A stretch of DNA of 17,555 bases from positions 1 through 17,555 of the forward strand of contig JBBQFH010000042.1 of NCBI GenBank assembly GCA_038321865.1, read 5' to 3'. Numbering within the stretch: position 1 is the stretch's first letter; each line of letters starts with the position of its first letter. This DNA is from Gemmatimonadales bacterium. GTDB lineage: Bacteria; Gemmatimonadota; Gemmatimonadetes; Gemmatimonadales; GWC2-71-9. Shown one piece after another: positions 1-17,555 of this stretch. Position numbers: made by a program.

Positions 1-3000
1 ACGTTGAAATCGCGAGGTGCAAGGGAGAATGTTTGCCCATCCGCCGTCACCGTGCGCGATCCGTCCGCTTGCGGATCGATCGTGGTCCCGTCCGTGCCGT
101 AGAACCTGATCTCGTGGCTCCGCGCGGCGGCGAGTTCGCCAAAGTCGTAATACTCGCCGCTCGCCGCGAACGGCTCGGCGTAGAGCTCGAGGCTCAGCTC
201 GGGCGTGAATGCGTAGTTGACGCGGGCCCGGGCAGAGAGGGTGTTCCGGCGTATGTAGGAGAAGACGTATCGCGTGCCGAAGGTTTCCGACCGCCCGCCG
301 TTCACGGCGGTCACGTACTGCCGGGAGCCGACGGCGCGGGTCCAGGTGGGATTGAGACTCACTCGCCACTGCGATGCCGGACGGGCTGAGACTCCGCCGA
401 ACAACGTCGTGCTCCAGCCGCCGATCGCGTCATTGAAATAGCTGAGGCCCCCCTGCCAGGTGACCGGCAACCCCTGATTGCCCGACAGCTGGGCGTCGAA
501 CCCATAGGCCGCCGGCACGCCCATGATCGGTCCGCCGCGGGTGAGATCGTCGCTGTAGGCGCTGGTATTCCCGTACGTGCCGAGAAAGATGGACCAGAAG
601 TTCCGGAGCGTCAGGTTGTTCCCCAGCGACCACCGGGTGCCGGTGTGGACCCCTCCGAAGTTCCAGCTGCGTCCCAGAAAGAGGCTGGAGGACCACTGTC
701 GGAAGACCGGGCCGGGCTGGGTCTCCCGATACCGAAGCTGGCCGGTTGCGTCGATGTCGTTGGCGCTCGCGATGCGTCCCACGTCATTGAGCTCGAGGGT
801 GGGAGATTCGAAGCCCAGCGCGGCGTTCCACAGCCAGTGCCGGCCCGCGTTCCGGGCCGCGCGGAGCGACGCCGACCACCCGGCGAGTGCCGAACGGGTG
901 GAGTCGAGCGTGAACTCAGTCGCGTCCGGACGCTGCATGAAGTGGGCGGAGGCCCGCTGCACCCGCAGGATGGCCGCCGGGTCGCCGCGGACGTAGCTGA
1001 AACCAGCCGCCGCGCCGAACTCATACGCGCCGTTGGTCGTCCGCAGGTTGATGTCGCCGCCGCCGGTGATGGCCGTACTCGGGAGGAGGGACCGCAGCGG
1101 CGATCCGGCGCCGAGGTCCCGCTCGACGCCGGTGAGCGACACGCCGGCGACCGATGCGTTCGGCCCGAACTGCCCCTGGACGCGCCCGACACCGTACGCC
1201 GTGAATGGCTCGATCTCCGTCCGGCCGAACGACCCGGTGGCCGCATCGAACGTCCGCGCCTCTTCCCGCCCAGTGAACGCGCTCAGCGCGCCGATGGAGA
1301 TGCCGTTCCGGAGCTGCCCGGTCACCTTGCCCGCGGCGAGGATGGTGGCGCTGGCCGGCCGATCCACGAACGAGCCGTCGGCGACACCCCGGGGCGACTG
1401 ACCGATGCGCCGCGAGTAGAAGAAGTTCTGCCCCCCACCGCGGAGCAGCTGGGCGCCTTCGGTGAAGAAGGGCCGCCGCTCGTCGAAGAACGTCTCGAAC
1501 GCCGAGAGGTTCACCTCGGCCGGATCCGCTTCCACCTGACCGAAATCGGGGTTGACGGTGGCGTCGAGCGTCAGGTTCGGACCAAGTCCCATCTTGAGGT
1601 CCGCGCCCGCGCGCGCCGAGATGTCGCTTCCGTCGTGGAACGGATCGCCGGGCGCGGCCGGCGAAAAGGTCGCGTTGCTCGCGACGTACGGCACGAGCTC
1701 GAGCCGGCGCGACGGCTGTACTCCTTCGATGCCGACAAGCTCGCCGAAGCGCGAGGACCAGCCGCTCTCCTTGGCCGGGACCACGATCCAGTAGATGTCT
1801 TCGTTCGTGGCGGGAATCCATCGGTTGATCTGGACGCCCCACTGTTGCGCACCCGCCCTGGAGAAGCGGAGCTGTGAGAGCGGAATGCGCGCCTCGGCGA
1901 TCCAGCCGGTGGAATCGACCGACGCCTTCGCCTCCCAGACCGGGTCCCAGGTCATGTCGCGCGAGTATTCGTTATCCACCGCGTGGTAGTAATCAATGCG
2001 CACGCCGCCGGACGAGATGACGAAGCTGTAGCTGGTACGGCGGTCGTGGTACGTGTCGAGCGCGATCACCAGGTGCTCCGCGTTGGTCATCTGGTCCCGG
2101 CGCGCCACCGCGGTTGGAATCTTTCCGGGCGCGTTGCTGTGGAGCCGGGCCCCGACGTAGAGCGCCTTGTCATCGTAGAGGAACGCGACTTCGGTGCGGA
2201 CGGTAGGCTCTGCGCCCTCGACCGGAAGCTTTTGATGAAAGTCGGACCGCCACCGGGCATCCCCCCACGCACTCTCGTCGAGATGACCGTCGATCCGGAG
2301 GCTCGCGCCGACGGGAAGCCGCACGGCAGAAAACTGCTTGGCCGCGTTCGGCACCGCCTGGCCCTGGACCAGCACCGGACCAGCGCATACGATCGCGATC
2401 AGCGTCGCGGCGGTACAGCGCATCTGCAAGCGAACTCCTGGATTGGTCAGGGTGATTGGATACCGGACCGGGACAGAACGTTGACTCTACTCTGTGAGTT
2501 TCAGCCTCCCCGGCATCGACTCTAGCCGCCGACCGCTGGTCATGACATACTGAGCCCATGGCCGAGTCTTCGCTCATCCCCGTTGCCCCGACGTCCGGCG
2601 CCAAGGTACCACTGGGTGTCGCCTCCCCGGTATGGATCGGGAGCGCGGCCGGCTGCGCGGTCCGGCTTTCGATCCCGGGTATCGCGGATCACCACGTGGG
2701 ACTGGTCGAGCGGGAGGACGGATGGTGGGCCAGTGCCGGACGCGGCGCGACGCTGCTGAACGGTATGCCGCTGTCCGGCATGGCCCGCCTCGGCGACGGG
2801 GACGTGCTCGAGGTATCGCCCGGCTATCGCTACAGATTTGAAACGGGGGCCTCGGACTCAGGCACGGCGCCTCAGCCACCGACGCGCCCAGCCGCCCCGG
2901 TCAGGAAGCGGAAAAAGTCCGGCGGGCTTCCCGGTGCGGCGCGCGGCCGGCCGCCGGTTTTCCTGATTTTGACGGTGGTGCTCGCCCTGGCCCTCGTCGC

Positions 3001-15000: not shown

Positions 15001-17555
15001 CCTTGACCAGATCACGGGTGAGCCGCTGCTCGGCGACGCGGCGGAGGTACACGGCCATCCGGCGCTCGAGATACCGGAGCACCCGGTAGGACGTGAAGAA
15101 CTTGAGCACGCCCTTGGGATCCTCGGCCTGGGAGCGGCTGCCGACGAAGCAGAGGTCGTTGTCCTCGTTCCGGATGATCGTGACGATCTGCCGCTCCATG
15201 GACAGGTGCTCCATCTGCGAAATGCGCGGCTCGATGCGCGACTTGTCGACCCCGCGGATCTTGCCGAAAATCATGCCGACCGGCCCCTGGGCGATTCCGC
15301 CACCGGTGGAGCGGTCGGTGCGCGCCAGCGAGCCGGCGAAGAGCATCGATGCCGGCGCGAACAGATCGGCATCATCGGAGTCGCCATCGGGCCGCTCGAA
15401 CCAGTGCTTGTCGCGGAGCTTCACGTAGCCGGCGACCACGACGTCGGCCGCGGCCTTGTCCTCGGGACGCTTGAGGAATTCGTAGGCACCGCCATCGGTG
15501 CGAAACTGATCGCTGAGCGTGCGGAAGCTCTTCTCGTCCTTGAGATCGCCGATGAGCAGCATGCCCCACTGGTTCGCGATGTCTTCCAGCCGCTTGCGGA
15601 CGTTATCGGGCACATAGCCCGGCACCACCAGGTTGCAGATGAACTGCCGGAAGTTGAAGCTGTCGTTCCGGCTCTGGATGAACTCATCGAGCGCGACGAT
15701 CGTCGAGCTGTCGGCGTCCTTCGTGATGGCCTTGGTGTCGGCGTTGAAGATGAAGAACTCGACCGGCGGGCGCTGCACGCCGTCGCGCACGTCGGCGTTC
15801 TCGAAGAAGAGGTGCAGCTGCCGGTAGCTCCGTTCCATCGGCCGGATCTTCTCGTACAGCTGCGCCAGCACCTCGTCGCGCATCTTCTCGGCCTTGGCGA
15901 TCGCCTCGTCCAGCTTCTTGAGCGCCTGGGCGTAGCTGTCGGTGTCGGAGAGCAGCGCGGCGAAGTTGGCGATCCGGTCCTGGAACTGCGAGGCCGACTC
16001 GGCGGTGAAGATGTCCTTCAGCGCGGTCTTGGTCGGCGCCGGGTGGATGACGTTGAAGATTTCCTCGATCGCCTTGGCTGCCGACCGGGTGCCGATGATG
16101 TCCTGGGCCGACTTGACCATCACGTTGTCCGCGCTCATCCCTCGCCTCCCGCGATCCGCTTGAGCTGGGCCTGCAGGTCGCCGAGGGCGCCGATGATCTC
16201 CTTGCGCTGGGCCTCGTTGTCCCAGGCCTTCTTGACCGCGAGGAGCGTAAAGCGCTCCCGCATGCGGTGCAGCAGGTCGATCTGGCTCTGCAGGTCGGCG
16301 ATGTCGTTGCGCTTGCCCGGCTCGCGCGCCCGGATCTGCTTGGGATCGAAGTCCTTCAGGCTCCGGAAATCGAGTTCGGCGACAAACTCGGTCCCCTCGT
16401 CGCCGACGTTGGTCTTGAAGTCGAGCTTGGGGGCGAACTTCTCGAACGCCTCGGCGACGCTCGAGACCTTGGTCGGGCCCTCATCCTCCGGGCACTCTTC
16501 ACCGATGCGGTCGAGCGTCATCGGCATCACGGTGGCCGTGGTCTCGGTCGGGACCTCGCGCGGCGCCGAGCGCACCCCGGCGCGGGTGACCTTTACGACT
16601 GGCATGTCGGACTCTCCTCGGATGTCGAACGGGCGGGGCCGGAACGCCCCCGGGGCGTCGGGGCCGGCATCGGGCGCGCGCATGCCGGCCGCAGGCTGTT
16701 GGCGACGGATGGCGAGGCGATCGGAAGGCGCATCGGACGTCCTGGTGTCGGGGACGAGCGGAACTGCCGGCGGTGGTGTGTCGGGACGCGTTGAGTCTAC
16801 GCCCGAACTCGCGGGCGGTCAACAGATTGGACCGGCCGTTGACCGCGGCGACGGCCGGCGTACCTTGGAGCAGCCCTCTGAACTTCCACCGGGCGCCCTC
16901 GCGGGCGGCCAATCCCCGACCTTTGGATCATGGATACAACGCATGTCGTGGTGCAGGGCGAGTACCTGTCGCTCATCGCGGCCCGCTCCGGGTTCCGCGA
17001 CCACCTGGTGATCTGGGATCACCCCGCCAACGCGGCGCTCAAGCAATTGCGCAAAAACCCCAACGTGCTGCTGCCGGGAGATCGGGTGGTCATCCCCGAA
17101 CGAAGCCCGGGGCTCGTTGCCGCGGCGACGGGTCAGGTCAATGCGTTCGTGGCAAACCCGGGCGACGTGCTCGTGAATATCGCTTTTGAGGATCCGAGCC
17201 GGCAGCCGATGGCCACCCGCGCGGGGAACCTCACGGTCGGGGTGACGTCGCGGCGCGGCAACGGTTTTCTGGTCCGCGGACCGACACCGGCGACGACCGA
17301 CGACAAGGGCAAGTTTCCCCTCATCTTCCGGAATGCCCTCACCGTCGGTGCGCTCCCGACCGACGGCGCGTTCGTGATGGATCCGGCCGTACCGCTCCCC
17401 CGCGCCCCGTTCCGGTTCCTCGTCGGCAGCCTCGACCCACTCGATACCCGTTCGGGCCAGCGCGCGCGCCTCAACAACCTGGGCTACTTCTCCGGCTTCG
17501 GCGAGCAGGATGACGACCAGCTCCTCTGGGCCATCGAGGAGTTCCAGGCCGACGA

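Follow-up and report, generated by a model that had tools for sequence, protein, structure and literature searches.

A T6SSiii-related secretion locus of Gemmatimonadota and Acidobacteriota with a putative ubiquitin-like envelope anchor

Two unrelated membrane complexes of type VI secretion systems (T6SS) have been described, TssJLM and TssNQOPR. The latter belongs to the T6SSiii of Bacteroidota, in which, according to PMC10781749, TssN combines TM helices with an EccD-like ubiquitin fold and binds TssK, TssR contains a vWA domain, and no representative was recorded outside Bacteroidota among more than 20,000 complete genomes. In the T7SS, one lineage has a free ubiquitin-like (Ubl) protein (YukD/EsaB), whereas another has it joined to a multi-TM protein (EccD), with FHA and (pseudo)kinase partners; YukD serves as a structural hub to which FHA domains bind (PMC12637312), and it acts non-covalently and is reported not to be conjugated (PMC12637312 and PMC1779556). 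Bacterial Ubl conjugation, in the literature considered here, is an anti-phage activity (Bil/CBASS).

The window analysed here is the whole of contig C42 (17,555 nt) of a Gemmatimonadales genome, G000. It encodes a full type VI core, namely the TssB/TssC sheath, Hcp, VgrG, the TssE/F/G/K baseplate and a Clp ATPase. The minus-strand order is tssB-tssC-orf-tssD-tssE-vgrG-tssF-tssG-tssK-clpV-(TPR-TM-FHA), and a plus-strand FHA-TM gene converges on these T6SS genes. The features are as follows.

2558..3769, plus strand: FHA-like, TM and periplasmic domain protein, a Gemmatimonadota accessory (FHA E 3e-3; one TM; family F22).
3709..4662, minus strand: signal peptide, TPR, TM and FHA protein (FHA E 6.6e-16; hydrophobic stretches at residues 1 and 167).
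4659..7343, minus strand: Clp-family AAA+ ATPase in the clpV position (ClpB 905 bits vs ClpV1 709 bits).
7369..8979, minus strand: tssK with a clade-specific C-terminal part (TIGR03353 E 1e-10; hhalign prob 98, residues 10-314 only).
8976..9893, minus strand: tssG with an N-terminal PASTA-like segment (PF06996 E 2.5e-6; PF03793 E 2e-4; hhalign prob 94.6).
9886..11598, minus strand: tssF, baseplate wedge (hhalign against Bacteroidota TssF prob 97, 499 columns).
11600..13516, minus strand: vgrG, spike (PF04717 E 9e-13; hhalign prob 100).
13545..13913, minus strand: tssE (gp25-like), the least secure core call (atlas gp25/sheath-initiator clusters 0.92).
13920..14399, minus strand: tssD/Hcp, tube (hhalign against Bacteroidota TssD prob 96; PDB 7yw0/8gra and 9qwl at E 0.03).
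14448..14792, minus strand: small conserved ORF (family in 29 entries).
14789..16138, minus strand: tssC, large sheath subunit of a clade adjoining T6SSiii (PF17541 E 6.7e-21; hhalign prob 99.4; tree).
16135..16605, minus strand: tssB, small sheath subunit, 156 aa (PF05591 E 9e-4; hhalign against Bacteroidota TssB prob 96; start from the G046 orthologue).
16930..17553, plus strand: LysM-like/peptidoglycan-binding gene cut by the contig end (208 of the 243 aa of the G046 orthologue).

The start of tssB had been placed at 16683 in the first-pass annotation; judging from the G046 orthologue, it is probably at 16605. That annotation had also described the locus as split over two contig ends, which was borne out by G046, collinear across the C32/C42 junction, so that a gap of about 4.3 kb is implied. 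The Ubl-TM and vWA genes of G000 lie at C32:29099-31554, and the LysM-like gene belongs to a cargo block linking C42 to C32. The small ORF had no Pfam, NCBIfam or atlas support, and its family was confined to Gemmatimonadota-type loci, with no acidobacterial member among the 29 entries. Further Clp copies were seen in G000 on C20 and C44.

The core resembled T6SSiii, as presented in PMC10781749, in its homologous sheath, tube, spike and baseplate and in having no TssA, TssL or TssM. When compared by hhalign with Bacteroidota T6SSiii, seven of eight core subunits matched at prob 94-100; TssE gave no match to Bacteroidota TssE, and an acidobacterial TssE orthologue matched TIGR03357 at E 0.025. 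Both T6SSiii markers, a PF17541-type TssC and a TssD-type tube, were present in G000. As had been noted before, TssC matched PF17541 only (E 6.7e-21, residues 23-441) and not PF05943, TssB, TssG and TssK were weak profile matches with TssF weaker still, and the tube was nearest to Bacteroidales TssD, the only PDB matches of its profile being 7yw0/8gra and 9qwl, weak at E 0.025-0.03. The PF17541 score of the G000 TssC was 75 bits vs a cut-off of 25, and Bacteroidota-type members reached up to 757 bits; a VipB (PF05943) sheath was not found in G000, with controls positive. However, TssC identity to Bacteroidota T6SSiii was only 20-24%, and in the TssC tree the sheath formed a separate long-branched clade adjoining it. 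A repeated scan again recovered 70 loci, 45 from Gemmatimonadota, 21 from Acidobacteriota and 4 from others by record title. Taken together, hhalign, the TssC tree and the absent membrane-complex profiles support the earlier view that the core is related to T6SSiii and belongs to a distinct clade of Gemmatimonadota and Acidobacteriota in which no membrane complex can be recognised by sequence.

TssL and TssM were found in neither G000 nor G007 (E. coli and G003 or G611 controls positive), and TssA in none of four carrier genomes (controls positive), in agreement with the first-pass annotation. Its searches for TssN and TssR had lacked a positive control; with Bacteroides plasmid controls that matched (TssN at E 3e-69), both were again absent from all four carriers. 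TssO/TssQ were likewise found in 0 of 4, the control matching at both TssO-family genes. By hhalign, TssN and the module proteins gave prob <=0.6, and the sole TssP comparison, of the vWA-TM protein with TssP (TM and PKD domains), gave prob 1.5. These profile and hhalign comparisons revealed no sequence homology between the module and TssN/O/P/Q/R, TssP being covered by that one comparison. For a TssJ-type lipoprotein the check was a lipobox scan of 10 loci, which revealed no conserved lipoprotein, and no outer-membrane component was identified.

Three inner-membrane proteins accompanied the core, namely the 6-TM/FHA, the vWA-TM (signal peptide, Ig-like, vWA, TM) and the TPR-TM-FHA protein; a homologue of the last followed clpV in both phyla. 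A TM and ubiquitin-fold protein and a vWA-bearing protein are also among the envelope parts of T6SSiii (PMC10781749); in the present loci, however, the Ubl sits at the N-terminus or is a separate protein, a kinase and FHA domains occur, and the vWA protein is anchored in the inner membrane. The first reading had called the G000 protein an EccD-like Ubl-TM protein. Its ubiquitin fold held, but the whole protein consists of Ubl, six TM helices and a C-terminal FHA-like domain, and the EccD match was weak and domain-level (7b9f_D, E 2.8e-4, whole-chain TM-score 0.19, rmsd 15). In contrast to T7SS, the loci contained no T7SS genes, neither FtsK ATPase nor WXG100 substrate. Residues 1-79 of the Gemmatimonadota protein matched the free Ubl (prob 97.4) and residues 101-376 the free TM-FHA protein (prob 99.0); by these alignments, the G000 protein is a fusion of two genes, Ubl and 6-TM/FHA, that are separate in Acidobacteriota.

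Four Ubl architectures were observed: free Ubl, a Ubl-GG-E2 precursor, the Ubl-TM-FHA fusion and a permuted fusion. Both fusion types join Ubl to one and the same membrane protein, the 6-TM/FHA protein. The earlier report of a Ubl standing alone in Acidobacteriota beside E1, E2 and RING-like genes was confirmed, E2 and E3 being present in 77/77 loci and E1 in 74/77. The free Ubl ended in Gly in all 74 distinct sequences, the E2 carried HPN..Cys in 75/76, the candidate E1 catalytic Cys was found in 73/73, and the E3 was a TM-RING protein. The Ubl-E2 precursor had GG at the junction in 83/87, and a JAB peptidase gene came next in 17 of 31 loci; of the 14 without it, 13 ended <=160 bases from the match and one at an apparent JAB start. 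Searched with that JAB profile, L001-L151 and G000 gave no match. Activation of the Ubl C-terminus is indicated by its terminal Gly, by the catalytic Cys of both E1 and E2 and by the restriction of JAB to the form with an internal Gly. The acidobacterial relatives have the parts of a Ubl conjugation system: a C-terminal Gly that is free or can be released, the catalytic Cys of E1 and of E2, an E3, and a JAB where processing is needed. E2 was found in neither fused form, and G000 (89.85% complete) gave no E2, TM-RING, close E1, JAB or free Ubl; the TM-RING gene was kept in 3/3 permuted-fusion loci where no E2 was found. Weak E2-only matches (L262, L291, L292), probable read-through or fragments (P0272-P0274), L284 (a duplicate of L261) and five TM-FHA fragments not covering the Lys loop were left out. 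In quick midpoint-rooted trees each architecture was one clade and the two ligase-bearing forms grouped (support 81), which fits both a fused-first and a split-first order.

Prokaryotic Ubl-E1-E2-RING(-JAB) operons resemble these loci in their full enzyme cascade and RING-type E3, but in 46/48 full-length loci of the present set the cascade goes together with a secretion core. An anti-phage identity was considered and dropped, PADLOC giving generic E1 matches only. An acidobacterial RING/E1/E2/Ubl operon was reportedly treated by Burroughs et al. in 2011/2012, and the free operon may already be in print. Literature searches listed no paper that connects this T6SS with a Ubl cascade; Burroughs 2011/2012 and supplements could bear on novelty. 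The folds of the module are not unprecedented, since they occur in TssN/TssR and in T7SS YukD/EccD; new here are the relation between Ubl/TM-FHA fusion and free forms, the second fusion, the Ubl-GG-E2 and JAB architecture, the intact E1/E2 residues, the TPR-TM-FHA protein and the pairing with subtype-i cores.

The clade sheath occurred in about 2% of the sampled Gemmatimonadota and Acidobacteriota. In evenly drawn genomes, TssC was found in 8/301 Acidobacteriota, with Ubl and E2 in the same 8, and in 7/301 Gemmatimonadota, with the full Ubl-TM-FHA protein in the same 7 and E2 in 0/7; these co-occurrence counts are not independent because the carriers are kin, and G-labelled genomes and L-labelled loci may overlap. 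In the Ubl-E2 loci, tssK accompanied the Ubl module rather than the sheath. This lineage also has TagJ and TssA, and two MAGs, G611 and G613, combined the module with a canonical subtype-i VipA/VipB/Hcp/TssE/TssF core and had no detectable canonical TssK, TssL or TssM; both are fragmented, of unstated completeness, and carry module and core on separate contigs. The G613 core adjoined a single gene of the module, TPR-TM-FHA, and the module locus of that MAG showed no clade TssK. Kinase, FHA and PP2C genes, like TagJ and TssA, recall T6SSi (PpkA/Fha/PppA, TagJ, TssA), which differs from the present system in that the latter has a clade-specific TssK and no TssL or TssM. A coreless cassette in two genomes was without both the Ubl and the vWA domain.

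From these observations, we favour as the probable reading a contractile T6SS in which a T6SSiii-related tail and baseplate are joined to a third type of envelope anchor bearing a Ubl, probably conjugated in most acidobacterial carriers. Some lineages probably use enzymes to attach the Ubl hub, and from the distribution data we infer that the module anchors the machine. The anchor would consist of the inner-membrane 6-TM/FHA protein with a cytoplasmic Ubl, the vWA-TM protein and the TPR-TM-FHA protein, and would be tuned by a circuit of Ser/Thr kinase and PP2C. The envelope may be braced by the periplasmic vWA and TPR domains, the kinase may phosphorylate a conserved Thr in the cytoplasmic tail of the vWA protein, and FHA domains may gather the complex. 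The membrane-tethered Ubl would dock the baseplate via TssK, as proposed for the ubiquitin-like domain of TssN in T6SSiii. In the window lineage the Ubl is fused genetically to the putative anchor; in most acidobacterial carriers a separate Ubl would be activated by E1, E2 and the membrane RING E3 and probably conjugated to a machine component, most plausibly the 6-TM/FHA protein, yielding the same product post-translationally. A more specific version is offered tentatively, as possible rather than probable: a eukaryote-like E1-E2-membrane RING E3 cascade (with JAB processing) ubiquitylates the membrane hub of a secretion system and thereby licenses baseplate docking, with the G000 fusion as its hard-wired counterpart and the module as a third, portable anchor serving subtype-iii-like and subtype-i tails via its own TssK.

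A Lys of the TM-FHA protein, conserved in 68/68 free forms and in 11/11 Ubl-E2 loci, is a candidate Ubl acceptor, for which the comparisons were equivocal. Its loss on fusion seemed strong at n=3; at n=30 this was rejected, as seven divergent members of the permuted fusion keep the Lys and Arg replaces it only in one tight cluster. As a background control, fused forms had lost roughly one third to two thirds of all invariant residues, and invariant lysines of TssB and TssC were also lost in both fused groups.

The Ubl might instead be a non-covalent adaptor that binds FHA like T7SSb YukD, with E1/E2/E3 acting elsewhere or regulating the amount of free Ubl. YukD does engage FHA domains non-covalently (PMC12637312), free YukD and fused EccD present the same split/fused pattern (PMC12637312 and PMC1779556), and the acceptor-Lys comparison was a weak test. 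Nevertheless, the YukD neighbourhoods listed in PMC1779556 are without E1/E2, and here C-terminal activation of the Ubl is suggested by its terminal Gly, the catalytic Cys of E1 and E2 and a JAB confined to the form with an internal Gly; we consider such an adaptor unlikely. A TssN/TssR complex that has diverged very far could also account for the module, which would make the system a T6SSiii outside Bacteroidota; this agrees with the related core and with the TM helices and ubiquitin-like domain of TssN and the vWA domain of TssR (PMC10781749). It is a very improbable reading, given no profile match, hhalign prob <2 (with templates of only 2-3 sequences), a TssN with a C-terminal Ubl and no FHA and hence a different domain order, a TssR that is a lipoprotein, and a module also found with subtype-i cores.

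Conjugation might also mark the sheath, baseplate, cargo or lipid as a recycling or loading tag, in which case the membrane proteins would serve kinase/FHA regulation and the real anchor would be elsewhere or absent, as in a T6SSiv-like or released particle. Invariant lysines occur in TssB, TssC, TssF, TssG and TssK, the lipobox scan of 10 loci yielded no outer-membrane part, and the FHA/kinase/PP2C set resembles T6SSi regulation. However, Ubl is joined to the same membrane protein in both fusions, TssK and the module together pass to a core without TssL and TssM, and TssK and ClpV are present here, neither of which is known from T6SSiv and extracellular injection systems; this alternative appears rather doubtful.

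A third, Ubl-bearing anchor that is interchangeable between tails would, if real, indicate that the anchor is a swappable module keyed to TssK. Bacterial operons that contain a RING gene are not known to have established physiological substrates, and for a Ubl operon of this kind the locus suggests a particular function and target as candidates. The fused and split forms are natural controls for each other and bear on the origin of membrane E3 ligases. Cultured, non-pathogenic carriers, which make the proposal directly testable, are Granulicella mallensis (locus L049) and, for Ubl, Silvibacterium dinghuense.

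The window genome (3.4 Mb, 89.85% complete) carries the locus on two contigs, C42 (the window) and C32:

C42, minus strand: tssB, tssC, small ORF, tssD, tssE, vgrG, tssF, tssG, tssK, Clp ATPase gene, TPR-TM-FHA gene
C42, plus strand: FHA-TM gene of the same locus
C32, end: kinase gene, Zn-ribbon/TM/Sel1 gene, Ubl (ubiquitin-like protein)-TM gene, vWA gene, then the cargo block

The first-pass annotation had described the locus as split over two contig ends, and genome G046 carries the C32 and C42 gene set unbroken in a single piece. The last C32 gene matched its G046 counterpart over 472 of 500 residues, and the last C42 gene did so over 208 of 243. 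Since these counterparts lie approximately 4.3 kb apart, C32 and C42 very probably adjoin in the window genome. The cargo block (C32 31511-36567; L001:14512-19567) contains DUF4123 adaptor, PAAR and LysM/peptidoglycan-binding genes together with OmpA-like and unknown proteins, and no effector was identified in it. The flank at window 3-2423, a DUF5916/CBM9-like gene cut by the contig end, is unrelated to the locus. TssG (window 8976-9893) has a PASTA-like segment at its N-terminus in both phyla.

The core proteins were compared, profile against profile, with Bacteroidota T6SSiii proteins taken from five plasmids. The probabilities were 96 for TssB, 99.4 for TssC, 96 for TssD, 97 for TssF, 94.6 for TssG, 98 for TssK (N-terminal part only) and 100 for VgrG, and TssE did not match Bacteroidota TssE; the TssC and TssD values uphold the earlier claim of a T6SSiii-like sheath and tube. 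Among 72,556 plasmids, the window TssC matched eight, all of Bacteroidota, with 20-24% identity. The TssC profile retrieved 231 representatives from 1.84 billion sequences; 46 of the 50 scanned matched PF17541 and none matched the subtype-i VipB family. In a quick, midpoint-rooted TssC tree, a branch of length 1.14 (support 99) set Gemmatimonadota and Acidobacteriota together apart. This clade is rare, with TssC in 7/301 Gemmatimonadota and 8/301 Acidobacteriota sampled genomes (each count includes the chosen centre).

Natural TssB-TssC fusions and strongly diverged sheath proteins (P0002, P0005, P0011, P0013) occur in the same clade. Most Acidobacteriaceae loci (L044-L067) have two tssD copies and a core operon without vgrG, which lies nearby or elsewhere. 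Seven loci (L034, L048, L068, L071, L082, L126, L137) are labelled Bacillota, Janthinobacterium, Acidimicrobiales, Verrucomicrobia or Arcobacter; their genes are as near the query as the Gemmatimonadota/Acidobacteriota ones, and the labels are probably binning or label errors. A further PF17541-type T6SS (L179-L258; 80 loci listed of 118 matching stretches) is labelled mostly Zixiibacteriota, Krumholzibacteriota and Ignavibacteria, with some Eisenbacteria and Latescibacterota. Its gene order is clp-B-C-D-vgrG-E-F-G-K, followed by a 308-aa unknown gene and one for a DO-GTPase2 protein, and the Ubl, TM-FHA and vWA profiles had no match among its 24 commonest families.

Of the known anchor components, TssL, TssM, TssA, TssN, TssR and TssO/Q were searched for genome-wide. 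TssL and TssM, which the first-pass annotation had reported missing, were not detected in the window genome or G007, with G003 and E. coli as positive controls, and TssA, likewise reported missing, was found in 0/4 carriers (G611 control detected). The search for TssN and TssR, now with a positive control (a Bacteroides plasmid), gave 0/4 carrier genomes, as did TssO/Q. No outer-membrane protein was identified among the loci examined. In G003 (L296 and C3), this system coexists with a canonical T6SSi that has TssK, TssL and TssM.

Three inner-membrane proteins recur in Gemmatimonadota and Acidobacteriota, namely 6-TM/FHA, vWA-TM and TPR-TM-FHA. The window genome's 6-TM/FHA protein was modelled (pLDDT 86.8) as a beta-grasp (1-84), six helices (101-279) and a beta-sandwich (283-362), and Foldseek gave domain-level matches only, to EccD5, SUMO/ubiquitin and FHA domains. 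The EccD likeness proposed earlier is weak and confined to domain level, and the protein also has an FHA-like C-terminal domain. The vWA-TM protein comprises a signal peptide, an Ig-like/vWA region and a TM; its DxSxS motif was found in 115/121 ORFs. Among the distinct tails of the three groups, 33/33, 57/67 and 3/3 carry a motif that ends in Thr. The TPR-TM-FHA gene follows clpV; the acidobacterial protein (approximately 700 aa) has an additional periplasmic domain, and a PP2C gene comes next in 3/8 acidobacterial regions examined. At L164:14089-16500 (genome G114), Ubl-TM-FHA and vWA-TM were called as a single 803-aa frame, which may be a true fusion or two overlapping genes.

The Ubl occurs in four forms. 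In form A (Gemmatimonadota), it is fused to TM-FHA, and the acidobacterial free Ubl (probability 97.4) and free TM-FHA (99.0), placed one after the other, align with the whole protein; E1, E2 and E3 were found in 0/47 loci, and E2 in 0/7 sampled carrier genomes. In form B (Terriglobia-type; 77 among the 80 loci listed), the order E1 > TM-RING > Ubl > E2 lies beside TM-FHA > vWA > tssB > tssC. The lone Ubl with E1, E2 and RING-like genes, as claimed earlier for Acidobacteriota, was seen in 48/48 full-length form-B loci, 46 of which have T6SS genes within 10 kb. A terminal Gly is present in all 74 distinct form-B Ubl sequences, HPN..Cys in 75/76 E2 (aligned to solved E2 active sites), a Cys after CxxC in 73/73 E1, and 16 conserved Cys in E3. 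In the Acidobacteriota sample, TssC, Ubl and E2 were found in the same 8/301 genomes, plus one weak unrelated E2. The free Ubl/E1/E2/E3 operon may reportedly already figure in Burroughs 2011/2012. Form C (Blastocatellia-type; 30 fusion proteins retrieved) again has Ubl fused to TM-FHA, with the last FHA strands appearing by eye to be shifted to the front. TM-RING is retained, and E2 was not found in 3/3 genomes in which controls were detected. In form D (Vicinamibacterales-type), Ubl and E2 make up one precursor, which has GG at the junction in 83/87, and the gene order is E1 > E3 > Ubl-E2 > JAB > TM-FHA > vWA > tssK > tagJ > tssA. JAB was present in 17/31 form-D loci, and the others break off before the gene could be seen; a two-sequence profile, which could miss distant JABs, found nothing in forms A-C or the window genome. 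The occurrence of JAB where the Gly needs freeing, and the lack of E2 where the Ubl is fused, form the main evidence suggesting that the Ubl C-terminus is truly activated.

The analysis established gene content, homologies, catalytic motifs and co-occurrence. We lean towards a third kind of envelope anchor built on Ubl-bearing inner-membrane proteins, which would anchor the machine, dock via TssK and be subject to phospho-regulation. The full ubiquitylation version, in which the Ubl would be conjugated to TM-FHA, is somewhat doubtful. The candidate acceptor, the sole invariant Lys of free TM-FHA (68/68), is missing from form A and replaced by Arg in one tight form-C cluster. However, this Lys is retained in seven divergent form-C proteins, invariant residues are lost in the fused forms at a background of 18/54 and 39/62, and the same pattern is found at three sheath lysines; TM-FHA therefore stays a candidate target. 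The persistence of E3 without E2 in form C and the failure to identify an outer-membrane protein also count against the model. Trees did not tell fusion-first from enzyme-served-first.

The module has the same folds as the T6SSiii membrane complex (MCiii): PMC10781749 describes TssN as five TM helices with an EccD-like ubiquitin fold that binds TssK, places a vWA domain inside TssR, and reports no T6SSiii outside Bacteroidota. Since profile-profile comparison detected no sequence homology to TssN/TssR, the likeness is one of analogy. For a Ubl hub, the nearest precedent is T7SSb YukD, described as binding FHA domains non-covalently (PMC12637312) and as joined, in Actinobacteria, to a TM domain (PMC1779556). 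PMC9113992 assigns to subtype i4b one plasmid T6SS from Acidobacteria and one from Gemmatimonadetes; because the window TssC matched Bacteroidota plasmids only, these appear to be a different system. The passages of PMC7159879 and PMC3482391 that were examined contain no such T6SS-Ubl link, and a literature search, with subscription papers mostly outside its scope, found no publication tying T6SS to a Ubl cascade. The window system is a new T6SS variant, a member of neither T6SSiii nor T6SSi, and its mode of working may be likened to that of TssN/YukD-anchored machines.

Two of three form-D genomes (G611, G613) lack the clade sheath and carry canonical subtype-i VipA, VipB, Hcp, TssE and TssF, and no canonical TssK, TssL or TssM was detected in these two; the clade sheath is present in the third genome. 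Subtype-i tssB of G613 has the TPR-TM-FHA and PP2C genes next to it. That the module follows TssK is suggestive only, because G611 and G613 are fragmented MAGs. Genomes G233 and G309, which are 97-99% complete and have no clade TssC, retain a cassette with TM-FHA without Ubl and a vWA partner without the vWA domain. Coreless or duplicate cassettes of TM-Sel1, TM-FHA without Ubl, Ig-TM and TPR-TM-FHA lie at L160:7907-11509, L161:8350-11946 and L157:4763-9977, and may be remnants or may serve a separate role as a membrane complex.
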